Source: Propionibacterium freudenreichii subsp. freudenreichii
GTDB lineage: Bacteria; Actinomycetota; Actinomycetes; Propionibacteriales; Propionibacteriaceae
NCBI RefSeq assembly: GCF_000940845.1
Contig: NZ_CP010341.1
Location: forward strand, 2,310,001 to 2,342,000
Direction of reading: 5' to 3'
Length of the DNA: 32,000 nt
Numbering within the stretch: the stretch's first letter is position 1; every line of letters begins with the position of its first letter. Under the pieces are notes generated by a model. The model ran no database searches and had not been told where the DNA came from. It worked only from the letters and a program-made list of their open reading frames with translations. Both the position numbers and the translations under genes were made by a program. Positions 21,113 to 32,000 of the stretch are shown here, in pieces.

Positions 21113-21457
21113 ATGCCGAAGGAACTGGCGAATGGGAAGCCGACGACGCGTCGCTACTCGGTCGAGGAGAAGGCCGCCGCGGTGCGGATGGTGAGGACGC
21201 TGCGCGCGGAGCTGGGCGTCACGCAGGGGACGGTGCAGCGGGTCGCGACGCAGCTCGGTTACGGGGTCGAGTCCGTGCGGATGTGGGTCAAGCAGGCCGA
21301 CGTCGACGACGGTGTCGTCCCCGGTGTGAGCTCGGCGGAGGAGCAGCGGGTGAAAGAGCTCGAGCAAGAGAATCGGGAGCTGCGCCGGGCCAACGAGGTG
21401 CTGAAACGGGCGGCGTCTTTCTTCGGGGCGGAGCTCGACCGCCACTACCGGAAGTAG
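21113..21457 (+). CDS. IS3 transposase OrfA (HTH / leucine-zipper part)
   Basis: MPKELANGKPTTRRYSVEEKAAAVRMV.. ..ELEQENRELRRANEVLKRAASFFGAELD, a typical IS3 OrfA ending. Confidence 0.88.
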   Translation: MPKELANGKPTTRRYSVEEKAAAVRMVRTLRAELGVTQGTVQRVATQLGYGVESVRMWVKQADVDDGVVPGVSSAEEQRVKELEQENRELRRANEVLKRAASFFGAELDRHYRK

Positions 21458-22377
21458 TCGCGTTCATCGACGCGAACAAGGACGACGTCGTGGACGGTCG
21501 CCGGCTCGGAGTCGAGCTCATCTGCAGACTGTTGCAGGTGGCTCCGAGCAGCTACTACGCCGCCAAGACCCGTGCGCCCTCTGCCCGTGCGCTGCGTGAC
21601 GAGGAACTGATCCCGCAGCTGGTCGAGATCTGGGAGGCCAACTACCGCGTCTACGGGGTCCGCAAGCTCTGGAAGGCTGCCCGGCGTGGGGGCATCATGA
21701 TCGGCCGCGACCAGACTGCGAGGCTGATGCGCGTCGCAGGGATCGAAGGTGCGAGGCGGTCGAAGCGGGTGAAGACCACGCGGCCGGACCCGGCGTCGTC
21801 GCGGCACCCGGACCTGGTCAAGCGGGAGTTCACCGCGACGGCACCGAACCGGCTCTGGGTGACCGATCTGACATTCGTGCCCACCTGGGCTGGCGTCGCC
21901 TACGTCTGCTTCATCATCGACGCGTTCTCCCGGATGATCGTGGGGTGGCGGGTCGCGTCACATATGCGCACCGAGATGGTCCTCGACGCGATCGAGATGG
22001 CGCGCTGGTCCCGAGGCGCCCACCATGAGGATCTGCGGTGTCACAGCGACGCGGGCTGTCAATTCACATCGATTCGCTACGGCGAACGCCTCGCAGAGAT
22101 CGGTGCGACACCCTCGATCGGGACCGTCGGCGATTCGTATGACAACGCCCTGGCCGAGACGGTGAACGGCTACTACAAGGCCGAGTTGGTTCGCGGGCCC
22201 ACCCGCTCGGGACCGTGGAAGACGGTCGAGGATCTCGAGCTCGCGACGCTCGGCTGGGTGCACTGGCACAACACGCAGCGCCTCCACGGATACCTCGGAG
22301 ACGTCCCACCCGCCGAGTTCGAGAACGCGTTCTATGCTGTCCCCAACGACAGCAATCTGCTGATCGGAATCAAATAG
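21283..22377 (+). CDS. IS3 transposase OrfB (DDE catalytic part); open -1 frame, presumably expressed as an OrfAB fusion by -1 frameshifting near 21400-21455
   Basis: DD(35)E signature: WVTDLTF, HSDAGCQFTS, YDNALAETVNGYYKAE. The frame is -1 relative to orfA and overlaps it. The coordinates give the extent of the open frame, not a proven start. Confidence 0.8.
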   Translation: MGQAGRRRRRCRPRCELGGGAAGERARARESGAAPGQRGAETGGVFLRGGARPPLPEVVAFIDANKDDVVDGRRLGVELICRLLQVAPSSYYAAKTRAPSARALRDEELIPQLVEIWEANYRVYGVRKLWKAARRGGIMIGRDQTARLMRVAGIEGARRSKRVKTTRPDPASSRHPDLVKREFTATAPNRLWVTDLTFVPTWAGVAYVCFIIDAFSRMIVGWRVASHMRTEMVLDAIEMARWSRGAHHEDLRCHSDAGCQFTSIRYGERLAEIGATPSIGTVGDSYDNALAETVNGYYKAELVRGPTRSGPWKTVEDLELATLGWVHWHNTQRLHGYLGDVPPAEFENAFYAVPNDSNLLIGIK

Positions 22378-22658: not shown

Positions 22659-23435
22659 CTACACCCACCCGCCATATGGCCTCTGGGCGACGGCCCCATT
22701 GAGCCAGCGGATGAGGGTGGTGAAGTCGAACACCGGCACGCCCACCGCCGCCTGGATGGCCGCGGCATAGGGCGGCATGTCGCTGCACTCCAGCAGGATC
22801 ACGCCCACCTCGGGGTCGCGGCACGCCTCCTCGGCGGCCGACACCAGCTCGTGCTCCACCTGGTTGTTGTCGAAGCTGCCGCGGTGCTGGTTGATGGCCG
22901 AGAACTGCGGCTCGTACTGGAAGCCGCAGAACACCAGGTCGGAGGTGTCGGTGACCCCGCAGGCCTCGAGGATCTCGGGGTCCAGCGAATCGGAATCGGC
23001 GGTGAGCACGGCGATCTTGCGTCCGGGCAGCACCGTGCGAATCCACGGGATCTGCACCAGCGACGACAACGCCGCCGGCACCCCCAGCTTCGGGGCGATC
23101 TTGGCCTGGTAACGGCCGAAGAAGCCGCAGGCCGAGCTGATCGCCCGCACGCCACGCTGCTCCAGCTCACGGCAGGCCTCCAGCACGGGCTTGCTGAGGT
23201 CCTTGTGCTCGGGGCCGAACAGGGCGGGGATGTCGATGCCACGCACCGGCTGCAGCAGCACGGGGAACTCCCAGGTGCTGGCGTTCACCACATTGCCCGG
23301 CACCATCGGATACCAGACGTCCTCGATGTAGATGATGCCCACGTGGTAGCCGGCGATGTTCTGGCCCGGCGCCATCGACACCTTGCCGATCGGCTGGCCG
23401 GGGGCCAGGTATCCATAGGGGCTCGTCGCGTTCAT
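22659..23435 (-). CDS. Asp/Glu/hydantoin-racemase-superfamily protein, function unassigned (putative two-thiol racemase/epimerase)
   Basis: 258 aa. The two candidate catalytic Cys contexts are ISSACGFF and LLECSDMP. The N-terminal motif is VPGNVVNASTWEFPVLLQPVRG. The start overlaps the upstream stop (ATGA). Confidence 0.6.
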   Translation of the reverse strand: MNATSPYGYLAPGQPIGKVSMAPGQNIAGYHVGIIYIEDVWYPMVPGNVVNASTWEFPVLLQPVRGIDIPALFGPEHKDLSKPVLEACRELEQRGVRAISSACGFFGRYQAKIAPKLGVPAALSSLVQIPWIRTVLPGRKIAVLTADSDSLDPEILEACGVTDTSDLVFCGFQYEPQFSAINQHRGSFDNNQVEHELVSAAEEACRDPEVGVILLECSDMPPYAAAIQAAVGVPVFDFTTLIRWLNGAVAQRPYGGWV

Positions 23436-24685
23436 GCGGCGGCCCTCTGGAAGCGTCGCATCGAGAAGGCGCCGTAGTCGGCGGGCGCGACGCCGTCGAT
23501 GAGGGCATGCAGCACGCGCGCGGTGGGCGGCGCATAGGTGAGCCCGAGCATCGCATGCCCGGTGGCCACGAAGGTGTTGACATAGCCGGGTAGGTGGCCG
23601 ACGATCGGCACGCCGTCGGCCGACATGGGACGCAGCCCGGCCCAGCCCGGTTCCACGTCGTCGAGGGGCACGTGCGGATAGGCCTGCCGCAGGTCGTTCA
23701 TCAATCCGTTGAAGACGCTCTGCGGGATCTTCGGGTGCGTCTGGCCGATGATCATGCCACTCGACACGCGCAGCCCCCAGGCCAGCGGGGTGACGGCGAT
23801 GTGGGTGTCATCGGTGATGATCGACGTGCGCGGACGCAGCTCGGCCCGGTTGATGTTGACGTCCACCGAGTAGCCGCCGCCGGAGTACACCGGCACCGAC
23901 ACCCCGAGCTTCTTGCCCAGCTCCCTGGTGGCGACGCCCGCCGCCAGGATCACGTGGTCGGCCGGGAACTCGGTCTTGTCACAGATCACCGAGACGACGC
24001 GGTCGCCCGAGCGTCGGAATCCGGTGACCGGGCTGTGCTCCACCAGGTTCACCCCGCCGTCGACCAGGGCCCCCACAAGGGCCTTCATCAGCGACGCCGG
24101 CTCCACCTGCACATCATCGGGGGCGTAGTAGCCGTAGAGGATGTCAGGCGACAGGGTGGGGTCCACCCGGTGCACCGCCTCGGGGCCGTCGAGCACCCGG
24201 ATGCGGTCGCGCAGCCGGTCGAAGCCGTCGAACACGGCCAGGCCGGCCTCGAAGGCCTCGCGATGGGTGAAGGTGTGCAGCGAGCCCTGTTCGTGCATCT
24301 CGAACTTCAGCCCGTCGGCCAGGTATTCGCCGTAGCCGTCGGACACCATGCGGGTCATGATGTCCTGCGCCAGGGTGCCCTTGACGAACTCCGACTTGCG
24401 CGTGGCCAGGGCCATGCGCAGCAGGAACGACAGGTATCCCGGCTGCACGTGGGGACGCACCGACACGGCGCCGGTGCCGGTGAGCACGGCCTTGGCGGCC
24501 ACCGGGATGGTGCCGGGCGCCGGCACCGGGAATGACAGCACGCTGGTGACCAGCGCCGCATTGCCGTGCGAGGGCCCCTTGCCGTAGCCGTCGGCCTCCA
24601 ACACGGTGACGTCGTGGCCGGCCTTCATCAACTCATAGGCCGCGGCCAGGCCGATCACGCCGGCACCCACAATGACTGTTCTCAT
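23432..24685 (-). CDS. FAD-dependent oxidoreductase, D-amino-acid dehydrogenase (DadA/DAO)-like
   Basis: Has an N-terminal dinucleotide fold (MRTVIVGAGVIGLAAAYEL) and the DAO-family C-terminal GHAMLGLTYAP. Confidence 0.8.
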   Translation of the reverse strand: MRTVIVGAGVIGLAAAYELMKAGHDVTVLEADGYGKGPSHGNAALVTSVLSFPVPAPGTIPVAAKAVLTGTGAVSVRPHVQPGYLSFLLRMALATRKSEFVKGTLAQDIMTRMVSDGYGEYLADGLKFEMHEQGSLHTFTHREAFEAGLAVFDGFDRLRDRIRVLDGPEAVHRVDPTLSPDILYGYYAPDDVQVEPASLMKALVGALVDGGVNLVEHSPVTGFRRSGDRVVSVICDKTEFPADHVILAAGVATRELGKKLGVSVPVYSGGGYSVDVNINRAELRPRTSIITDDTHIAVTPLAWGLRVSSGMIIGQTHPKIPQSVFNGLMNDLRQAYPHVPLDDVEPGWAGLRPMSADGVPIVGHLPGYVNTFVATGHAMLGLTYAPPTARVLHALIDGVAPADYGAFSMRRFQRAAA

Positions 24686-25065
24686 GACTCGTCCCCACTC
24701 ACATATGCTGTAGCGATCATTTCAATGCGATATCCGGGCAATTCGGCACCCACCGTGGCACGCGGCGGGAAGGGCCCCGGAATCATCTGTTTGTAGGTGG
24801 CATCAAAGCCGTCATAGTCGGCGCCGATGTCATTGAGGAATACCTGCACCTGCAACAGGTCGGACAATCCTGAGCCGGCGGCCGTCAGGATCTTTTCGAG
24901 GGTCTGGATCGACAGGCGCGTCTGCTCCTCGATCGTGGATCCCCGCACCTCGCCGGTGTCCAGGTCGTGCGGGGTCGCCCCCGAGGTGAACAGCAGGTTG
25001 CCCACCACCTTGCCGTGGCTGTACGACGCCACGGACTCGCCGATCGATATCATCTTGGGTGTCAT
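24682..25065 (-). CDS. RidA/YjgF/TdcF-family enamine/imine deaminase
   Basis: 127 aa with family motifs (LLFTSGATP, VQVFLND, PPRATVGAELP). Confidence 0.85.
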   Translation of the reverse strand: MTPKMISIGESVASYSHGKVVGNLLFTSGATPHDLDTGEVRGSTIEEQTRLSIQTLEKILTAAGSGLSDLLQVQVFLNDIGADYDGFDATYKQMIPGPFPPRATVGAELPGYRIEMIATAYVSGDES

Positions 25066-25072
25066 GATCTTC

Positions 25073-25876
25073 CTATCTGTTGATAACCGCTGACAGGAAT
25101 TCGGCGGTACGTTCCTTCTCGGGATGTGACATGACCTTTTCGGGGTCGCCCTCCTCGAGGATCGCCCCGTCCTCCATCACCACCAGGTGGTCGCCGATGG
25201 TGCGGGCGAAATTCATTTCGTGGGTCACCACCATCATCGTCATTCCGGTGGCGGCCACTTCCTTCATCACATTCAGCACGCCGTGGGCCAATTCCGGGTC
25301 GAGGGCGCTGGTGGGCTCGTCGAAGAGCATGGCGCTGGGCTCCAGGGCGAGCGCCCGGGCGATGGCCACCCGCTGCTGCTGTCCGCCCGACAGCTTGGCC
25401 GGGTAGGAGTCGGCCTTGTCGGCCAGGCCCACCTTGTCGAGCAGTTCGCGGCCCTTGTCGCGCGCCGCCTCGGGGCTGCGCTTCAGCACGCGACGCTGGG
25501 GCAGCACGATGTTGTCGAGCACGGTCATGTGCGGGAACAGGTTGAACGACTGGAACACCATGCCCACCCGGCGGCGCAGCTCCAGCAGCTCCTTGCGGGA
25601 ATGGTTGATGCCGCCCTGCATGTACTGGCCGTCGACGATCATGTTGCCGTGGTCGGGTTCCTCCAGCAGGTTCACGCAACGCAGCAGGGTGCTCTTCCCG
25701 GCGCCACTGGGGCCGATGATCGAACACACCTCCCCCTGCTTGACGCGCAGCGAGACGCCCTTGAGCACCTCGTGGTCGCCGTACGACTTGCGGATGCCGC
25801 CCAGTTCGATGGCGTAGTCGCCGGGCATCCGCACTGCCGGCGCGGCCGCTGGTGCGGCTGCTACATGCTGTGTCAT
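25073..25876 (-). CDS. Polar-amino-acid-type ABC transporter ATP-binding protein
   Basis: Walker A GPSGAGKST, signature LSGGQQQRVAIARAL, Walker B MLFDEPTSALD. Has GlnQ/HisP-like organisation. AAGGGGA RBS. Confidence 0.9.
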   Translation of the reverse strand: MTQHVAAAPAAAPAVRMPGDYAIELGGIRKSYGDHEVLKGVSLRVKQGEVCSIIGPSGAGKSTLLRCVNLLEEPDHGNMIVDGQYMQGGINHSRKELLELRRRVGMVFQSFNLFPHMTVLDNIVLPQRRVLKRSPEAARDKGRELLDKVGLADKADSYPAKLSGGQQQRVAIARALALEPSAMLFDEPTSALDPELAHGVLNVMKEVAATGMTMMVVTHEMNFARTIGDHLVVMEDGAILEEGDPEKVMSHPEKERTAEFLSAVINR

Positions 25877-25885
25877 GACTTCCCC

Positions 25886-25930
25886 TTGCGTTAGTCAGTT
25901 ACGTCAGTTGGTCAGTTGCGTTCGTCAGTT
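25886..25930. repeat. Cluster of four GTCAGTT heptamers, including a 15-bp direct repeat TTGCGTTnGTCAGTT x2
   Basis: The heptamers are at 25894, 25903, 25911 and 25924. The 15-mers are at 25886-25900 and 25916-25930. All lie in the 69-nt gap between the binding-protein and ATPase genes. Confidence 0.8.
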
Positions 25931-25945
25931 GCCCCGCTGCACCGC

Positions 25946-26806
25946 TCAGCTCTGCACCAGGTAGTCGCCGTCGAGCTTGGTGAGGCTCGTGTCGACGTTG
26001 TGGTCGGTGAAGATCTGGTCGAGCTTGCCGTTGCCGCGCAGGGTGGCGATGTCGTCGTCAAGCGCCTTGCCCAGGTCGGCGTTGTCCTTCGTGTACGGAA
26101 TGCCCACCTGTGCGGGCTTCACCGACGCGCCCACCTGGTCGTCCGGATTGGCGGTGGCCACCTGGAGTCCGGCGTCCTTGTTCTGGTCCGCCTGGAACTG
26201 CGCGGCAGGCACCGAGTCGATGCCCACGTCGATGCGTCCGGCCTTGAGGTCGGCGAACATCTCGACGTTCGACTTGTAGATCTTGAGCTTGTCGCCCATG
26301 AGCTTCTTCATGTCGTTCACCCACAGGTAGCCATCCACCGTGCCGACGTTGTGGGTGATCACGGTGGGGATGTCCTTCACGCCGTCCTTCGACACCAGGC
26401 CCATGCCGTCGACGTACATCGCCTTGCTGAGGCCCACCACCTCGGCACGGCTGGTGGTGCGGTAGTAGTCGCCGATCGCCACGTCGGCACGCTTGGACTG
26501 CACGGCCGGGATGGCGCCGCTGTAGTCAACCTGCAGGAAGTTCGTCGACAGGCACTCCATGGCGGCGATCTGGTTGATCACGTCCACGTCGATGCCCGAC
26601 TGGGTGTTGTCCTTCTTCGAGACGAAGGGGGCGAAGTCGGGGGCCGAGATGGTCAGCTTCTTCGAGCTGACGGTGTTGAAGGTGTGGGCCGGCTTGCAGT
26701 CGGACGCCACCTTCGCGCCGGAACCCGACGAGCCCGAACAGCCCGACAGCACCAGGGCGGTGGCGAGCGCACCAACACAGGCAATCCTGGACAATGAAAC
26801 AGACAT
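25946..26806 (-). CDS. ABC transporter substrate-binding lipoprotein (family 3, amino-acid type)
   Basis: AAGGAG precedes ATG 26806. Signal peptide and lipobox (ALVLSGCSGS). SBP_bac_3-like body. Confidence 0.85.
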   Translation of the reverse strand: MSVSLSRIACVGALATALVLSGCSGSSGSGAKVASDCKPAHTFNTVSSKKLTISAPDFAPFVSKKDNTQSGIDVDVINQIAAMECLSTNFLQVDYSGAIPAVQSKRADVAIGDYYRTTSRAEVVGLSKAMYVDGMGLVSKDGVKDIPTVITHNVGTVDGYLWVNDMKKLMGDKLKIYKSNVEMFADLKAGRIDVGIDSVPAAQFQADQNKDAGLQVATANPDDQVGASVKPAQVGIPYTKDNADLGKALDDDIATLRGNGKLDQIFTDHNVDTSLTKLDGDYLVQS

Positions 26807-26813
26807 GGTTATC

Positions 26814-26849
26814 TCCTTGCTGGAACGAATGGACATCCTTGCTGGAACA
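26814..26849. repeat. 13-bp direct repeat TCCTTGCTGGAAC x2 (23-bp period) spanning the binding-protein RBS
   Basis: The copies are at 26814-26826 and 26837-26849. On the coding (minus) strand each reads GTTCCAGCAAGGA, so the SD-like sequence is duplicated. Confidence 0.8.
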
Positions 26850-26872
26850 TGTTGACAACGACAGGCATCGTG

Positions 26873-27529
26873 CTATTCACGCAGGCTGAGGCGACGCTCA
26901 ACCCGGTTGGCCACCCAGGTGGCCGGAATGGTGATGATGGCGTAGATGATTCCGGCGAGCCCGAATATCTCCAGCGCCCGGAATGACGATGAACTGATGG
27001 AATATGCCTGGGCGGTGAGTTCGCTGACGGTAATGGAATATGCCAGCGAGGTGGCCTGGAATATCTGGATGGCCAGCCCCATCAACGACGGGATCGCCAC
27101 GCGCATCCCCTGGGGCACCACCACGAAGCGCAGCACGTCGGCGGTGGGCATCGCCAGCGCCAGGCCGGCCTCCCGGGTGCCCTCGCCCACCGAGACCAGC
27201 CCGCCGCGGATGTATTCGCCGGTGTAGCCGCCGGTGGTGAAGGCCAGGGCGATCACGGCGCACACCATGGCGGTGGGCGACCAGTGGATGGCCGGCAGGC
27301 CGAAGTAGACCACGTAGAGCATCACCAGGGCCGGCACGCCGCGTCCGACCTCCACCACGCCGATGCACAGCCAGCGCAGCGGGGCCAGTCGCGAGCCCAT
27401 GCCGATGGCGAGCAGCAGCCCGAAGGGCATGCCGATCACCAGGGCCAGTCCGGTGAGTTCCAGCGAGACCACCAGCCCGCCGAGCATCTGCGGGAGGTTG
27501 GCCCACCAGAAGCTGAATGTGTCGCTCAT
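26873..27529 (-). CDS. Amino-acid ABC transporter permease (HisM/GlnP type)
   Basis: 218 aa starting MSDTFSFWWANLPQ... The start overlaps the upstream stop (ATGA). The 446-aa track ORF is an out-of-frame over-extension across the neighbouring permease. Confidence 0.85.
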   Translation of the reverse strand: MSDTFSFWWANLPQMLGGLVVSLELTGLALVIGMPFGLLLAIGMGSRLAPLRWLCIGVVEVGRGVPALVMLYVVYFGLPAIHWSPTAMVCAVIALAFTTGGYTGEYIRGGLVSVGEGTREAGLALAMPTADVLRFVVVPQGMRVAIPSLMGLAIQIFQATSLAYSITVSELTAQAYSISSSSFRALEIFGLAGIIYAIITIPATWVANRVERRLSLRE

Positions 27530-28176
27530 CGTGCGCTCGCCTCCTGCTTGTGGGCTTCGATCCGCCGCGCCAACAGGCCCAGTGGCACCGAGATCACGAG
27601 GTAGATGAGCGCCGCCTCGAAGAACAGCAGCACGCCCTCCTTCGAGATCTTGGCGTAGCTGTTGGCCGTGTAGACCATCTCGGTGACGCCGATCACCGAG
27701 GCGATCGACGAGTCCTTGATGAGGCCGATCGAGTAGGTGGTGAGGCCGGGCTGCATGGCCCGCATCGCCTGGGGTGCCACCACCCGGGTGAACGACGTCC
27801 AGCCGCCCAGGCCCAGGGCGTTGGCGGCCTCGAACTGGCCCTTGCGCACCGCCAGCATCCCGCCGCGGAAGATCTCCGCCAGGTAGCCGGCGGTGATGAT
27901 GCCCAGGCCGATGATGGCCGCCGGGATCGGGTCGAGCATGATGCCCAGGTTGGGGAGCCCGAAGTAGATCATCAGCAGCCAGACGATCGGCGGGATGCCG
28001 CGCGCCAGGTCGACGATGAAGCCGGAGATACCCCGCACCACCATGAGGCGCGCCCGCCGGGCAAACATCAACGGAATTGCGAGGACAAATCCGAGTCCGA
28101 ATGCGCCGAGCGTGACGAGCGCCGTATATGGAACGGCCGCGATAATTGCGGTGAACCCTTCCATGGCATCTCCCAC
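27526..28176 (-). CDS. Amino-acid ABC transporter permease (HisQ/GlnP type)
   Basis: 216 aa, with an EAA-type loop (EAANALGLGGWTSFTRVVAPQA). The start may instead be the Met at 28164. Confidence 0.85.
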   Translation of the reverse strand: MGDAMEGFTAIIAAVPYTALVTLGAFGLGFVLAIPLMFARRARLMVVRGISGFIVDLARGIPPIVWLLMIYFGLPNLGIMLDPIPAAIIGLGIITAGYLAEIFRGGMLAVRKGQFEAANALGLGGWTSFTRVVAPQAMRAMQPGLTTYSIGLIKDSSIASVIGVTEMVYTANSYAKISKEGVLLFFEAALIYLVISVPLGLLARRIEAHKQEASAR

Positions 28177-28199
28177 CCGGTAGTCTGGCCAACTTCAAC

Positions 28200-28266
28200 T
28201 GATATGGTGACACTAACTTCGCGATGTTTCATTGGTATTTCATTGAATCGATATGAACTCGATATG
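28200..28266 (-). promoter_or_regulatory. AT-rich intergenic region with paired 8-bp direct repeats on an 11-bp period; candidate internal promoter/operator for the transporter genes
   Basis: TTTCATTG at 28227 and 28238. TCGATATG at 28248 and 28259, plus a partial tGATATG at 28200. The local GC content is far below the window average. Confidence 0.45.
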
Positions 28267-28280
28267 CGGTTACGAATGCG

Positions 28281-29327
28281 TTACGCGCCCACCGTCAGCA
28301 GGCACTTGATCGACTCGCGGCGGTCCATCAGCTCGTAGGCCCGGCCCACCCGATCCAGCGGCAGGGTGGCGGTGAACACCCGGCCGGGGTGCGAGCGGCC
28401 GGCCAGCACCTCGTCCATGAGCAGCGGCATGTACACCCGGGCGGGGCACATGCCGCCGGTCAGCGTGATGTTGTGCATGAACAGCCGTGCCGGGTCGATG
28501 CTCACCTGGTGCGGCAGGCCCACGTATGACACGGTGCCGCCGTCGCGCACCACGCCGAAGGCGGTGTCGAACGAGCCCTGGGTGCCGACGCACTCCACCA
28601 CGTGCGAGACCATCGCGCCGTGGGTGATGTCGGCCACCTGCTGCACCGCATCGGCGCCACGGACGCTGATGAACCGGTCGGCGCCCACCGTCAGGGCCAG
28701 CTGGCGGCGGTCGGGGTGGGCACTGCCGAGCACGATCACCTCGTCGGCGCCGGCGCGGCGCGCCGCCATCACGGCGCTCAGGCCCACCGCCCCGTCGCCG
28801 ATCACCACCACCGAGGAATAGGCGTCCAACCCGGCCTTGACCACGGCGTGGGTGCCGGTCGGATAGACGTCCGACAGGGTGAGCAGGTCGGCAAGCATCG
28901 ACTCGTCGGGTTCGTCACCGTCGCCGATCCTCACCAGGGTCGAGTCGGCGAAGGGCACCCGCACCAGTTCGCCCTGCCCGGCGTCGAGCACCTCGCGGCC
29001 CCAGAATCCGCCGTGGGTGCAGCTGGAGGTGAGCCCGGCACGGCAGTATTCACACTGCCCGTCGGAGTAGCGGAACGGCGCCACCACCCAGTCGCCGACG
29101 CGCACCTGGTCGGTGAGGGAGCCGGTGTCCACCACCTGGCCGAGGAATTCGTGGCCGATCCGGGCTCCGGGCGCCACCGAGGCCATGCCGCGGTAGGTCC
29201 ACAGGTCGGATCCGCAGACGGCTGCGGCGCGTACCGCCACGAGCGCGTCCATCGGGTCGGTGATCCGTGGCTCGGCGACCTCGCGCACTGCCACGTCGTG
29301 GGGTCCGTTGAAGACGACTGCATGCAT
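28281..29327 (-). CDS. Zn-dependent alcohol/aldehyde dehydrogenase (MDR superfamily)
   Basis: Catalytic-Zn motif CGSD...GHEFLGQVVDTG, structural lobe GQCEYCRAGLTSSC, NAD fold VVVIGDGAVG. Confidence 0.85.
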   Translation of the reverse strand: MHAVVFNGPHDVAVREVAEPRITDPMDALVAVRAAAVCGSDLWTYRGMASVAPGARIGHEFLGQVVDTGSLTDQVRVGDWVVAPFRYSDGQCEYCRAGLTSSCTHGGFWGREVLDAGQGELVRVPFADSTLVRIGDGDEPDESMLADLLTLSDVYPTGTHAVVKAGLDAYSSVVVIGDGAVGLSAVMAARRAGADEVIVLGSAHPDRRQLALTVGADRFISVRGADAVQQVADITHGAMVSHVVECVGTQGSFDTAFGVVRDGGTVSYVGLPHQVSIDPARLFMHNITLTGGMCPARVYMPLLMDEVLAGRSHPGRVFTATLPLDRVGRAYELMDRRESIKCLLTVGA

Positions 29328-29330
29328 GGG

Positions 29331-30410
29331 CTATCCGATCTCGAGTTCGGTGTTCACCAGGTTGGCGGGACGCTTGCCCGCCACGAGGCGCTGCACCAGT
29401 TGTTCCAGGGCGATGCGCTTGCCGTCGGCCAGCGATTCGGTGGAGATGAAGGCGGCGTGCGGGGTGATCACCACGTTGTCGAGCCCGAACAGCTCGGACC
29501 GTTCGTGGTCCTCGTCCTCGATCACGTCGATCGCGGCCCCGGCGATGCGTCGGTCACGCAGCGCGTCCACCAGGGCGGGCTCGTCGACCACGGCGCCACG
29601 GGCCGTGTTCACCAGGAAGGCGCTCGGCTTCATGAGCGCCAGTTCGCGGACGCCGATCAGGTGGTGGGTCGCCGCCATGAGCGGGGTGTGCAGCGAGACG
29701 ATGTCGCTGACCGCCAGCAACTCATCGAGCGTGTCCACCTTCTCGACGCCCCACTCGGCAAGGTATTCGGCGCTCTTGGTGGGCGCGAACACCACGATGC
29801 GCAGGCCCATTGCCTGCAGCATCGGCACCATGAGCTTCGGGATCGAGCCGAAGTAGACCAGTCCGATGGTGTTCCCGGTGATGCGGTGCGGCAGGCCGCC
29901 CAGCATCGGGTCCCAGCTGCCGGCCCGCACCGAGCGGTCGAGGAAGCTGATCTTGCGCACCAGGTCGATGATCATGCCCACCGTGTGCAGCGCCACGTCG
30001 GGTGAGCAGAATCCGGGGGCGTTCGTCACGGCCACCCCGTGGGCGGTGGCGGCATCGGGGTCGATGTTCGACGAGCCGATCGCCTGCACCGCCGCGATCT
30101 TCAGGTGGGGAAGTTGGTCGAGCACCGGATTGGTGACCTCGAAGTACTCCACCACCACGCCCTCGGCGTCGCCGACGGCCTTCACGAAGGTGTCGGGCCG
30201 GTTGTCGCCGGGCTTGGCGTCCACCAGGTCGATGCGGTCGGTCATGCCCCACTGCTCGAGCAGCGCGTGCTCGTAGTCGAGGTCACCGTCGATGTTGAAG
30301 TAGACCACCCGGGGGGTGCCGGTGGTCGGCTCGGCGACGCCCGGCGCCGTGGCTGCCGAGCTGGTGGCCCGCGCGGGGGCGGGCCGTCGGGCGTCCATCA
30401 GCTCGCTCAT
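29331..30410 (-). CDS. D-isomer-specific 2-hydroxyacid dehydrogenase family protein
   Basis: Contains GLVYFGSIP (NAD fold), LVNTARGAVVDE and ITPHAAF (catalytic His). ATG 30410 overlaps the aminotransferase stop (ATGA). Carries a ~30-aa A/P-rich N-terminal extension. Confidence 0.8.
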   Translation of the reverse strand: MSELMDARRPAPARATSSAATAPGVAEPTTGTPRVVYFNIDGDLDYEHALLEQWGMTDRIDLVDAKPGDNRPDTFVKAVGDAEGVVVEYFEVTNPVLDQLPHLKIAAVQAIGSSNIDPDAATAHGVAVTNAPGFCSPDVALHTVGMIIDLVRKISFLDRSVRAGSWDPMLGGLPHRITGNTIGLVYFGSIPKLMVPMLQAMGLRIVVFAPTKSAEYLAEWGVEKVDTLDELLAVSDIVSLHTPLMAATHHLIGVRELALMKPSAFLVNTARGAVVDEPALVDALRDRRIAGAAIDVIEDEDHERSELFGLDNVVITPHAAFISTESLADGKRIALEQLVQRLVAGKRPANLVNTELEIG

Positions 30411-31741
30411 GCCGCCACCGCCTGCTTCGTGGTGGCGCCGGAGGTGTGCCGGGGCGCTTCCCGTGCCGAGACGGTGGTCAGGGCCTGGTGCAGGATGTCG
30501 AGGCCCTCGTCGATGAGCTCGGTGGTGGTGTTGAGGGGCGTGGCGAAGCGCATGCCGTTGTGGCGCACCCCGCACGACAGGGTCATCAGGCCCTTGTCGA
30601 GGCAGATGGCCCGCACCTCCTCCAGCAGGTCACCGCCGGGGCGCCCGTCGACGTGGTTGAGCTCGATGGCGCGCATCAGGCCCAGGCCGCGGGCGTCGGT
30701 GACGATCGGGAACTCGTCCTTCAGCTCGTCGAGGCGGCCGGCCAGGTAGGAGCCGACGGCGTTGACGTTGTCGAGCAGGTGGGTCTCGGCGTAGACGTCG
30801 AGCACGGCGAGCCCGGCGGATGCCACCACCGGGTTGCCGCCGAAGGTGCCGCCATGGCGTCCCGGACCCCAGGCGGCCATGATCTCGGGGGTGGACACCA
30901 CGCCGCTGGCCGGCAGTCCACCGGCCATTGCCTTGCCGATGGTCATGATGTCGGGCACCACGTCGAAGTTCTCGGAGGCGAACATGCGCCCGGTGCGTCC
31001 GTAGCCGGCCTGGATCTCGTCGAAGATCAGCAGGATGCCGTTGTCGGTGCACAGCTGGCGCAGCGCCTTGACGAACCTGGTGGGCGGCACCACATAGCCG
31101 CCCTCGCCCTGCACCGGCTCCATGAGCACGGCGGCCACCGAATGGGGGTCGCGCACATAGGCGAACAGGTCGGTGAGCTGGCGCAGCGCCCAGTCGGCGA
31201 TCTGGTCGTCGGTGTAGCCCTCGGGTGACTGGTCGGCGCTGGGATAGGTCACCAGGTCGATGCCGGGAACCAGCGGGTCGTAGCCGGCGCGGTAGTGGGC
31301 GCTCGAGGCGGTCACCGAGGTGGCGGCGATCGTGCGTCCGTGGAAGGAGCCCTTGAAGGCGATGATGCCCGGACGCCCGGTGTACGCCTTGGCCAGCTTG
31401 AGGGCGCCGTCGGTGGCCTCGGCGCCGCCGTTGGAGAAGAAGGTGCTGCCCAGTTCGCCCGGTGCGATCTCGGCGATCCGCTTGGCCCACTTGAGGGTGG
31501 ACTCGTAGTTCACCACGTTGAACGAACAGGTGAGCAGTTTGCCGACCTGCTCGCGGATGGCCTCCACCACGCGCGGATGGCAATGGCCCAGCGCGTTCAC
31601 GGCGATGCCCTGCACCCAGTCGAGGTAGCGCCGTCCGCTCACGTCCCACACATAGGAACCCTCGCCGTGGTCGATCACCAGGTTGGTGGCCTTCGACAGC
31701 GCAGGGCTGAGGTACTGCTTGTAGTCCTCGTAGGTGATCAC
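30407..31741 (-). CDS. Class-III (omega/GabT-like) PLP-dependent aminotransferase
   Basis: GTG 31741 lies 5 nt after GAGGAGGA. Contains SNGGAEA, FDEIQAGYGRTG and the PLP-lysine context TIGKAMAGG. The track start at 31855 is an over-extension. Confidence 0.85.
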   Translation of the reverse strand: MITYEDYKQYLSPALSKATNLVIDHGEGSYVWDVSGRRYLDWVQGIAVNALGHCHPRVVEAIREQVGKLLTCSFNVVNYESTLKWAKRIAEIAPGELGSTFFSNGGAEATDGALKLAKAYTGRPGIIAFKGSFHGRTIAATSVTASSAHYRAGYDPLVPGIDLVTYPSADQSPEGYTDDQIADWALRQLTDLFAYVRDPHSVAAVLMEPVQGEGGYVVPPTRFVKALRQLCTDNGILLIFDEIQAGYGRTGRMFASENFDVVPDIMTIGKAMAGGLPASGVVSTPEIMAAWGPGRHGGTFGGNPVVASAGLAVLDVYAETHLLDNVNAVGSYLAGRLDELKDEFPIVTDARGLGLMRAIELNHVDGRPGGDLLEEVRAICLDKGLMTLSCGVRHNGMRFATPLNTTTELIDEGLDILHQALTTVSAREAPRHTSGATTKQAVAA

Positions 31742-31920
31742 ATCGTCCTCCTCGGGTCGTCGCTGCGGATTCCGTGGCCCGTCGGTTCGTGGCCTGTTCA
31801 ACCGGGGATCCGTACTGTTTGGCGCCAGCCTAGGAACGGTCCACGGCCCGTCCATGGGCCGTCTCGTACACTTTCTGGACGCGCATGGTCCCGTATGTAC
31901 CGCGCGCGTAGCCTGCTGCC

Positions 31921-32000
31921 ATGGCGATCACGGTGCGCGACCTGCTGGCGGCCCCCGAACTGCGCCTCGTGCTGCGCGAGCCCGGCGGCGAGGGTGCCCT
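31921..32000 (+). CDS. PucR/CdaR-like transcriptional regulator, N-terminal 26 codons only (continues beyond the window)
   Basis: MAITVRDLLAAPELRLVLREPGGEGA resembles the characteristic N-terminus of PucR-family regulators. It is divergent from the aminotransferase gene. Very little sequence is available. Confidence 0.4.
   Translation, partial: MAITVRDLLAAPELRLVLREPGGEGA

Follow-up and report, generated by a model that had tools for sequence, protein, structure and literature searches.

In the dadAX and dguABC loci of Pseudomonas, a racemase, a D-amino-acid dehydrogenase and a homologue of RidA act one after another, and in Thermococcales amino-acid racemases of the class-III fold are clustered with heteromeric dye-linked amino-acid dehydrogenases. 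Here we analyse a ten-gene cluster of Propionibacterium freudenreichii subsp. freudenreichii that recalls the Pseudomonas loci in its predicted logic. It lies in a 32,000-nucleotide stretch (contig NZ_CP010341.1, positions 2,310,001 to 2,342,000; hereafter the window) of a complete single-contig genome of 2.65 Mb, and the G+C content of the window is ~0.62-0.76. The genes encode a transporter and a set of enzymes that includes a racemase-like protein of PRK07475, described in a 2023 paper as the bacterial subfamily nearest the algal dimethylsulfoniopropionate (DMSP) lyase Alma1, its bacterial proteins having no lyase activity and probably a different function (PMC10349084). We tentatively favour, at somewhat less than even confidence, a model in which the cluster forms a PucR-controlled operon that takes up one amino compound and, passing through its D-enantiomer, frees it of its two nitrogens.

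The ten-gene cluster

Profile searches with Pfam and NCBIfam place the ten genes, packed on the minus strand, at 22659-31741. With the divergent regulator gene and the two main spacers, the locus reads as follows (ABC, ATP-binding cassette; FAD, flavin adenine dinucleotide):

31922-32000, plus strand: first 79 bases of the PucR-family regulator gene, which runs on past the window
31742-31921: divergent control region of 180 bp between the PucR gene and the aminotransferase gene
30407-31741, minus strand: class-III (GabT-like) aminotransferase, 444 aa; PF00202, 391 bits; NF005993/PRK08117, 652 bits against a cut-off of 574
29331-30410, minus strand: D-isomer-specific 2-hydroxyacid dehydrogenase, 359 aa; PF02826 and PF00389
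28281-29327, minus strand: zinc-dependent medium-chain alcohol dehydrogenase (Zn-ADH), 348 aa; PF08240 and PF00107
28177-28280: AT-rich spacer of 104 bp that divides enzyme genes from transporter genes; may hold an internal promoter or operator
27526-28176, minus strand: ABC permease 1; PF00528, 72 bits
26873-27529, minus strand: ABC permease 2, 218 aa; PF00528, 57 bits
25946-26836, minus strand: family-3 solute-binding lipoprotein (SBP_bac_3); PF00497; lipobox LSGC
25073-25876, minus strand: ABC ATPase of the polar-amino-acid type; PF00005
24682-25065, minus strand: RidA-family imine/enamine deaminase, 127 aa; PF01042, 79 bits
23432-24685, minus strand: DadA-like FAD-dependent amino-acid dehydrogenase (DAO family), 417 aa; PF01266, 200 bits
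22659-23435, minus strand: racemase-like protein of the Asp/Glu-racemase superfamily, 258 aa; PF01177; NF005679/PRK07475

An earlier note on this DNA had called ten genes of these families on one strand, linked by several ATGA overlaps and flanked by a divergent PucR-like regulator, and had remarked on the lack of an aldehyde dehydrogenase. These calls hold. All ten genes are present with their families, and four ATGA start/stop overlaps are verified in the sequence, at the aminotransferase/2-hydroxyacid dehydrogenase, permease 1/permease 2, RidA/flavoenzyme and flavoenzyme/racemase-like gene junctions; the remaining intergenic gaps of the cluster measure 3-104 bp. Extension into the genome yields a 498-aa regulator (L002:922-2418) with PucR (PF07905, 83 bits) and HTH_30 (PF13556, 65 bits) domains, and no Aldedh domain occurs among the ten genes. 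G+C at third codon positions lies at 0.79-0.94 across all ten reading frames. Two gene calls were refined, in that the aminotransferase starts at a GTG at 31741, preceded by GAGGAGG, and permease 2 lies in the frame of the open reading frame (ORF) 26873-28213, not in that of the mechanically listed ORF 26898-27506. All ten proteins score below the cut-offs of the function-specific NCBIfam models (June 2026 release), and the only NCBIfam models passed are the subfamily models PRK08117 and PRK07475, both uninformative.

Conservation of the gene set across phyla

ORFs were called and clustered in 82 loci (80 from a pattern scan, together with Raineyella and Clostridium kluyveri), and neighbours were counted in the 66 of these loci, mostly from Bacillota, with a cleanly called racemase-like ORF. 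The closest racemase-like homologue (73% identity) is found in Raineyella sp. W15-4, which has the same ten genes in the same order beside the same divergent PucR, with identities of 62-81% for the ten proteins and 47% for PucR. The whole arrangement of ten genes and PucR is repeated in five more actinobacterial metagenome genomes; a sixth actinobacterial metagenome contig ends after the last four genes of the arrangement, and Demequina carries a rearranged version adjoining a family-5 ABC system and an amidase. Across the 66 loci, the neighbours of the racemase-like gene are (Fe-ADH, Fe-type alcohol dehydrogenase):

Pyr_redox_2 protein: 49 of 66 loci
DAO protein: 46 of 66 loci
Aminotransferase, 54-64% identical to that of the window: 39 of 66 loci
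Fer4 protein: 39 of 66 loci
Fer2_4 protein: 32 of 66 loci
BFD/SO_alpha_A3 protein: 30 of 66 loci
RidA: 28 of 66 loci
2-hydroxyacid dehydrogenase, 54-62% identical to that of the window: 26 of 66 loci
Fe-ADH: 18 of 66 loci
Auxin-efflux-carrier-family transporter: 18 of 66 loci

The typical Bacillota form, seen in Clostridium kluyveri, comprises an ABC importer, an Fe-ADH, the aminotransferase, the 2-hydroxyacid dehydrogenase, RidA, a five-gene Fe-S/flavin dehydrogenase, the racemase-like gene and an exporter-like gene, and none of the eight C. kluyveri counterparts scanned reaches a function-specific NCBIfam model. In Bacillota clusters an Fe-ADH stands in place of the Zn-ADH and the flavoenzyme is a multi-subunit Fe-S/flavin complex; the gene order (Fe-ADH, aminotransferase, 2-hydroxyacid dehydrogenase, RidA, flavoenzyme, racemase) runs exactly opposite to the order of reactions proposed below. 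In Treponema loci, 2-hydroxyacid dehydrogenase, RidA, flavoenzyme and racemase-like genes occur together and the transaminase is missing; this connects the 2-hydroxyacid dehydrogenase with the product of the flavoenzyme. The neighbour counts, together with the C. kluyveri form, establish that the enzyme set is conserved across phyla, with interchangeable transporters, regulators (PucR, LysR or GntR) and alcohol dehydrogenase types. The gene set is a real unit and not a chance neighbourhood. The earlier idea of a racemase, a D-amino-acid dehydrogenase and RidA working together is strengthened by the cross-phylum co-occurrence of exactly these genes.

A maximum-likelihood tree of sampled racemase-like proteins falls into two halves. 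One, which includes the window protein, holds loci with aminotransferase, RidA and 2-hydroxyacid dehydrogenase; in the other, a sister group, the racemase-like and flavoenzyme pair occurs with a gene of the dihydrodipicolinate synthase (DHDPS) family and an SNF transporter, and its loci sometimes add a proline-racemase-family gene, U32 'collagenase' peptidases, an aldehyde dehydrogenase or a sigma-54 activator. Loci L041, L048, L073, L075, L083, L085 and L024 of the sister clade combine the DHDPS-family gene and the SNF transporter with an Fe-S/flavin dehydrogenase. By analogy, this context could be an anaerobic hydroxyproline-type pathway in which the racemase-like protein replaces or supplements the usual epimerase.

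Some loci carry further genes nearby. At least nine Bacillota and Treponema loci (L015, L021, L022, L023, L025, L035, L053, L069 and L074) encode a cytidylate-kinase-like protein (PF13189) between an ABC system of the leucine/isoleucine/valine (LIV) type and the enzyme genes. In Raineyella, the cluster is directly followed (L003:10867-16150) by a second 2-hydroxyacid dehydrogenase, a second class-III aminotransferase, a 2-hydroxyacid oxidase dependent on flavin mononucleotide, a GntR regulator and a gene like that of pyrroline-5-carboxylate reductase, a second gene set that is not conserved in the other loci. More distant relatives of the racemase-like protein (30-44% identity) are encoded on alphaproteobacterial plasmids; in all four loci read (L093-L096), the gene for the relative, of 39-44% identity, comes after a polar-amino-acid ABC operon. 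Three of the four have a DAO-like FAD-binding oxidoreductase, two of these with a pyridoxal 5'-phosphate (PLP) aminotransferase, and three of the four a large FAD-dependent oxidoreductase, two of these with electron-transfer flavoprotein and purU genes. These contexts are suggestive of N-methyl-amino-acid or proline-type substrates and are too distant for transfer to the window cluster.

The racemase-like protein

The earlier assignment of a two-Cys protein of the racemase superfamily is borne out by a match to PF01177 (35.5 bits, cut-off 31) and by the conservation of C103 (in ACGFFG) and C217 (in LECSDMPPYA), both invariant in 39 homologous sequences. The protein matches NF005679/PRK07475 over residues 18-257 of 258 (283.5 bits, cut-off 231), a model whose title is just 'hypothetical protein'. 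Its AlphaFold2 model (mean predicted local distance difference test score, pLDDT, 88.7) has the two-domain alpha/beta racemase fold, and Foldseek matches of this model have a probability of 1.00, template-modelling (TM) scores of 0.46-0.63 and identities of at most 19% among the matches listed (rank 50 or better). The listed matches are hydantoin, Glu, Asp and allantoin racemases or arylmalonate/malonate decarboxylase, except for one unnamed Rhodococcus protein and the fungal family member OpaE.

A phmmer search of the PDB returned chance matches only and no close solved structure, and a search of the ESM Atlas gave only clusters with generic names. Among 1.84 billion representative proteins, 170 clusters match with E < 1e-30, and the public names of homologues are generic or wrong (for example 'arylsulfatase'). 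Keyword searches of the literature, with subscription journals mostly outside their reach, found nothing on a bacterial function of the family. The cysteine motifs of Alma1 are DCGF/NCGF and ECTE/ECTQ (PMC10349084), and these are unmatched by the ACGFF and ECSD of the window protein, which we therefore rejected as an Alma1-type DMSP lyase. The protein is a member of a cofactor-independent racemase-like family without a studied bacterial member, for which its residues and fold predict racemase or epimerase activity. Among the 170 clusters are relatives of 459-789 aa, 28-34% identical to the window protein (P0146, P0155, P0157, P0178, P0189, P0214, P0215, P0229 and P0266), that contain the domain in two copies. 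In this they resemble eukaryotic Alma-type proteins, in which a duplication of the racemase domain has been described.

The partner enzymes

The best solved relatives of the aminotransferase are PuuE/GabT (E 2e-94), and solved archaeal racemases are also among its PDB matches (E 5e-83 and 4e-70). All mappable residues of Escherichia coli GabT are kept (I50, R141, E211, D239, Q242, K268, T297 and R398), of which, by this mapping, R398 would serve 2-oxoglutarate/glutamate and R141 the distal carboxylate. Ornithine aminotransferase has Tyr55 at the position of Ile50 in GabT and in the window protein. The full GabT residue set with an Ile at position 50 would suit an omega-amino carboxylate without an alpha-amino group, and agrees with a substrate from which the alpha-amino group has been removed beforehand, in keeping with the earlier suggestion that the transaminase acts on a second amino function. 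Scores against two GABA-transaminase (GABA, gamma-aminobutyrate) equivalog models, 388 bits against 724 and 385 against 507, are below the cut-offs.

The nearest solved relatives of the 2-hydroxyacid dehydrogenase are archaeal phosphoglycerate dehydrogenase (PGDH) and glyoxylate reductases, together with McyI. As called, the enzyme begins with an Ala/Pro/Arg-rich extension of ~25 residues (30336-30410) that is missing from the 334-aa Raineyella orthologue, and its true start could be further downstream. The best solved relative of the Zn-ADH is 4cpd (entry title 'alcohol dehydrogenase'; E 3e-56). For the flavoenzyme, the nearest model is that of D-amino-acid dehydrogenase, NF001933, which it matches at 196 bits, about half the cut-off of 383; its score against NF009074 is 118 bits against a cut-off of 494, so that the DadA model cut-offs are not reached, and among solved proteins it matches glycine oxidases only (E 4e-20). 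RidA keeps the catalytic arginine (Arg105 of Salmonella RidA) within PPRATVGAEL and scores 69 bits against the archetypal model TIGR00004. Because the cut-off of that model, 106, is not reached, the protein is by its sequence assigned to a RidA-like subfamily rather than to RidA proper.

The importer and the control regions

The binding lipoprotein, the two permeases and the ATPase are predicted to make up a four-part ABC importer of the polar-amino-acid type. The nearest models of the ATPase are GlnQ, TcyN and EhuA, and it scores under the cut-off of each. In the binding protein, the Thr/Arg pair that contacts the alpha-carboxylate in the lysine/arginine/ornithine (LAO)- and Gln-binding proteins is conserved, and so are both aromatic residues between which the LAO protein clamps its ligand; its side-chain-reading residues differ from those of the LAO protein and are not common to the Bacillota binding proteins. 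A pocket comparison of actinobacterial with Bacillota binding proteins found the alpha-carboxylate Thr/Arg pair alone in common, from which the substrate is not readable. The spacer between the binding-protein and ATPase genes (25877-25945) holds four (A)ACTGAC copies in ~40 bp (CAACTGACGAACGCAACTGACCAACTGACGTAACTGAC).

The PucR regulator is 35-48% identical to its counterparts in the same position in seven related actinobacterial loci. Comparison of the 180-bp spacer between the PucR and aminotransferase genes with those loci found common GGTGATACA-like and TCCAGAnnGTAAC/GTAC-like boxes of weak conservation. In the 104-bp spacer, GTAAC and TGAAACA boxes recur in the matching spacer of five or six related loci (L007, L008, L009, L011, L012), and GTAAC/GTAC-like and CAAACA boxes are present in the PucR/aminotransferase spacer too. 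The boxes in both spacers are a candidate common operator, which would be in line with common control without proving it. No sigma-70 consensus was found in the 180-bp divergent region, and scans for promoter and terminator consensus gave sites no more numerous than in shuffled sequence.

A proposed pathway and its alternatives

Read together, these assignments would give the following route. An alpha-amino acid with a second nitrogen would be taken up by the ABC system and inverted at C-alpha from L to D, without PLP, by the two-Cys PRK07475 protein. The D-form would then be converted to a 2-imino acid by the DadA-like flavoenzyme, and the imine to a 2-oxo acid and ammonia by RidA, which might instead open the ring if the product were a cyclic ketimine. 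The D-2-hydroxyacid dehydrogenase would reduce the 2-oxo group, the GabT-like transaminase would pass the omega-amino group to 2-oxoglutarate, and the alcohol dehydrogenase would reduce the resulting aldehyde, leaving a dihydroxy acid as the end product. We favour this model because it gives each of the six enzymes exactly one job, because the Bacillota gene order reverses the reaction order, and because the Treponema loci keep the 2-hydroxyacid dehydrogenase, RidA, the flavoenzyme and the racemase-like gene in the absence of the transaminase.

The substrate may be of the diamino, hydroxy-amino or non-proteinogenic class put forward in the earlier note, and we lean towards a C5 or C6 basic or imino acid of the ornithine, proline or lysine type, which is the weakest link in the model. 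We do so because D-ornithine and D-proline would yield the same product, 5-amino-2-oxopentanoate / delta-1-pyrroline-2-carboxylate, where the ornithine and proline types would meet (or at its C6 homologue), and because the sister group looks hydroxyproline-related. No PutA-type proline dehydrogenase was found in the genome.

Several considerations weigh against this model. Neither an activity nor a ligand is known to us for the ten proteins or for their close homologues. Alma1, the algal relative, is a lyase and not a racemase, and open-chain 5-amino-2-oxopentanoate is disfavoured relative to its cyclic imine. The dihydroxy-acid end product has no obvious further use, so that the pathway would serve nitrogen scavenging or redox balance, not carbon gain. 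In addition, Lachnospiraceae versions are without both of the NAD-linked dehydrogenases, and transporter families vary by lineage (family-3, LIV-type, and family-5 with an amidase), so that the imported form may differ. Finally, support for the root split of the racemase tree is moderate to weak (76/86), and its Demequina sequence sits in the wrong place, on a long branch.

The alternative that survives best, though we consider it unlikely, is that some of the enzymes recycle the amino acceptor of the transaminase. An imported omega-amine or omega-amino acid (GABA, 5-aminovalerate) would be converted to a semialdehyde by the transaminase and then to an omega-hydroxy acid by the alcohol dehydrogenase, while the L-glutamate formed would be turned back into 2-oxoglutarate, with release of ammonia, through a step like that of glutamate racemase followed by a D-glutamate dehydrogenase and RidA, on the pattern of Pseudomonas dguAB. 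The transaminase is indeed most like GABA transaminases, with every GabT residue kept, the GABA genes of Corynebacterium are under PucR-type regulators, the racemase-like protein falls within the Asp/Glu racemase superfamily, and the combination of DAO, RidA and a family-3 binding protein is the dguABC pattern. However, the genome already encodes a canonical glutamate dehydrogenase (299 bits), which lessens the need for such a scheme, and the 2-hydroxyacid dehydrogenase would have no role in it, since reduction of 2-oxoglutarate would defeat the recycling. The Treponema loci and the whole sister group, moreover, pair the racemase-like gene and flavoenzyme with a transporter and no transaminase, and the binding protein keeps the alpha-carboxylate-holding residues of alpha-amino-acid-binding proteins.

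It is improbable that the PRK07475 protein is not a racemase at all and uses its cysteines in the manner of Alma1, for elimination, isomerisation or decarboxylation of a pathway intermediate such as a 2-oxo, enamine or beta-substituted acid. The superfamily does include maleate isomerase, arylmalonate decarboxylase is among the fold matches, no solved chain among the matches listed exceeds 19% identity or a TM score of 0.63, and the proline-racemase-family gene of some sister-group loci makes a second epimerase look redundant. Both cysteines are nevertheless invariant, which is the racemase/epimerase signature, single-Cys members doing other chemistry, and in two phyla translational coupling links the gene to one that resembles D-amino-acid dehydrogenase genes. 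The nearness of the subfamily to Alma1 likewise cuts both ways, in that the bacterial homologues are reported to be without DMSP lyase activity (PMC10349084).

We give little credence to the idea that the locus consists of two unrelated neighbours, a PucR-controlled aminotransferase-dehydrogenase operon and a separate transporter-RidA-flavoenzyme-racemase operon for the use of D/L-amino acids. The AT-rich 104-bp spacer, with its own conserved boxes, does split the two halves, and many loci have the racemase-flavoenzyme pair but no aminotransferase. Yet the aminotransferase adjoins the racemase-flavoenzyme unit in 39 of the 66 loci, in both Actinomycetota and Bacillota and with differing gene orders and regulators; in Bacillota one strand carries all the enzyme genes in tandem, uninterrupted by a transporter; and similar boxes occur in both control regions. 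That the pathway has already been characterised under other names is a slim prospect, for although our keyword-based literature search left subscription journals largely uncovered, neither the ten proteins nor the eight C. kluyveri counterparts reach a function-specific model, the racemase homologues bear generic or wrong public names, and the 2023 paper gives PRK07475 proteins an unknown, different function (PMC10349084).

Distribution and significance

When one genome of each species was scanned for the sequence pattern, racemase-like relatives came up in at least 547 species genomes, mostly of anaerobic Bacillota, with further groups in Propionibacteriaceae, Syntrophomonadaceae, Holophagaceae, Treponema and Desulfovibrio; many anaerobes of gut, rumen and sediment share the enzyme set. 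The gene is present in 5 of 120 other Propionibacteriaceae genomes and in 0 of 5 other species of the same genus. Directly downstream of it in the window lies an IS3-family transposase ORF (rve, HTH_21 and rve_3; 21283-22377, plus strand), which separates the cluster from a nitrate-reductase/molybdenum-cofactor block. The patchy family distribution and the adjoining IS3 element suggest that the operon was acquired horizontally.

It is conceivable, though we hold it doubtful, that PRK07475 proteins are in general unrecognised, cofactor-independent epimerases of amino or imino acids, widespread among these species and mostly anaerobes, which feed D-specific flavoenzyme complexes, and that with a transaminase, RidA and two reductases they make up an undescribed route from a common basic or imino acid (ornithine, proline or lysine type) to a dihydroxy acid in which both nitrogens are harvested. 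If the proposed pathway holds, this would be the first function for a bacterial subfamily known only as the 'inactive' kin of a climate-relevant algal DMSP lyase, and it would add a missing route of amino-acid degradation or nitrogen salvage to many gut, rumen and sediment anaerobes as well as to dairy Propionibacterium. Cheese ripening would be touched by this, in that lactic acid bacteria leave behind ornithine, GABA or proline that could then be used. Since the compact, conserved gene set includes a binding protein and a regulator, its substrate could be found by routine ligand screens and enzyme assays.

Comparison with known systems

The earlier note matched the cluster to no pathway that it could name, and this stands: keyword-based literature searches found no characterised orthologous pathway, and every function-specific NCBIfam cut-off exceeds the score of its match. 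Ectoine utilisation (ehuABCD-eutABCDE / doe) was considered and rejected, as the EhuA match reaches 282 bits against 345 and those to EhuC and EhuD 114-118 against ~200, and as no gene for an EutD/DoeA hydrolase or EutE/DoeB deacetylase is among the ten. Readings as phosphonate catabolism (HpnW/HpnZ, PbfA), opine oxidase, taurine/isethionate, threonine dehydrogenase or formaldehyde dehydrogenase were likewise rejected, the matches to their models being sub-threshold only.

Alma1 is the closest named relative of the PRK07475 protein and has two cysteines at equivalent positions, but its cysteine motifs differ and the context of the window protein is amino-acid catabolism. The Thermococcales clusters place a class-III-fold protein beside a complex of DAO, Pyr_redox_2-type and ferredoxin-like proteins, as do the Bacillota versions; window-type clusters, in contrast, always hold a separate two-Cys racemase-like protein, and the class-III protein of the window keeps the full GabT transaminase residue set. 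With the gabTDP genes of Corynebacterium glutamicum, under the PucR-type GabR, the cluster shares a divergent PucR-family regulator adjoining a GabT-like class-III aminotransferase with its active-site residues intact. Unlike gabTDP, it has seven additional genes and is without a succinate-semialdehyde dehydrogenase and a GabP permease; we rejected it as a GABA unit on the GabT equivalog scores and on the lack of an Aldedh or amino-acid-permease domain among the ten genes.

The bacterial trans-4-hydroxy-L-proline pathway (epimerase, D-hydroxyproline dehydrogenase LhpBEF/HypO, DHDPS-like deaminase and 2-ketoglutarate-semialdehyde, KGSA, dehydrogenase) is similar in its L-to-D inversion followed by a DAO-family, sometimes three-subunit, dehydrogenase and in its family-3 ABC importer, and genes of the DHDPS and proline-racemase families accompany the racemase-like gene in its sister clade. 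The window cluster differs in having RidA, a transaminase and two NAD-linked reductases instead of a proline-racemase-fold epimerase, a DHDPS-family deaminase and an aldehyde dehydrogenase. Since the epimerase, the deaminase and the KGSA dehydrogenase are missing from the ten genes and such genes occur in sister-clade loci only, this identity too was rejected.

As in Pseudomonas dadAX (with its RidA homologue) and dguABC, a racemase would supply a D-amino acid to a DAO-family FAD dehydrogenase, with a RidA-family protein speeding imino-acid hydrolysis, and like dguABC the locus includes a family-3 binding protein. The cluster nonetheless lies outside Dad and Dgu, as the DadA model cut-offs are not reached (the flavoenzyme attains about half of the nearer one). 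Unlike theirs, its racemase is predicted to be PLP-independent and belongs to an uncharacterised subfamily, the omega-transaminase, the D-2-hydroxyacid dehydrogenase and the alcohol dehydrogenase are constant partners in clusters of the window type, and Bacillota have a five-gene Fe-S/flavin complex as their flavoenzyme. The cluster has the defining feature set of no known pathway, and its logic resembles that of the Dad and Dgu loci and, more loosely, that of the hydroxyproline pathway.

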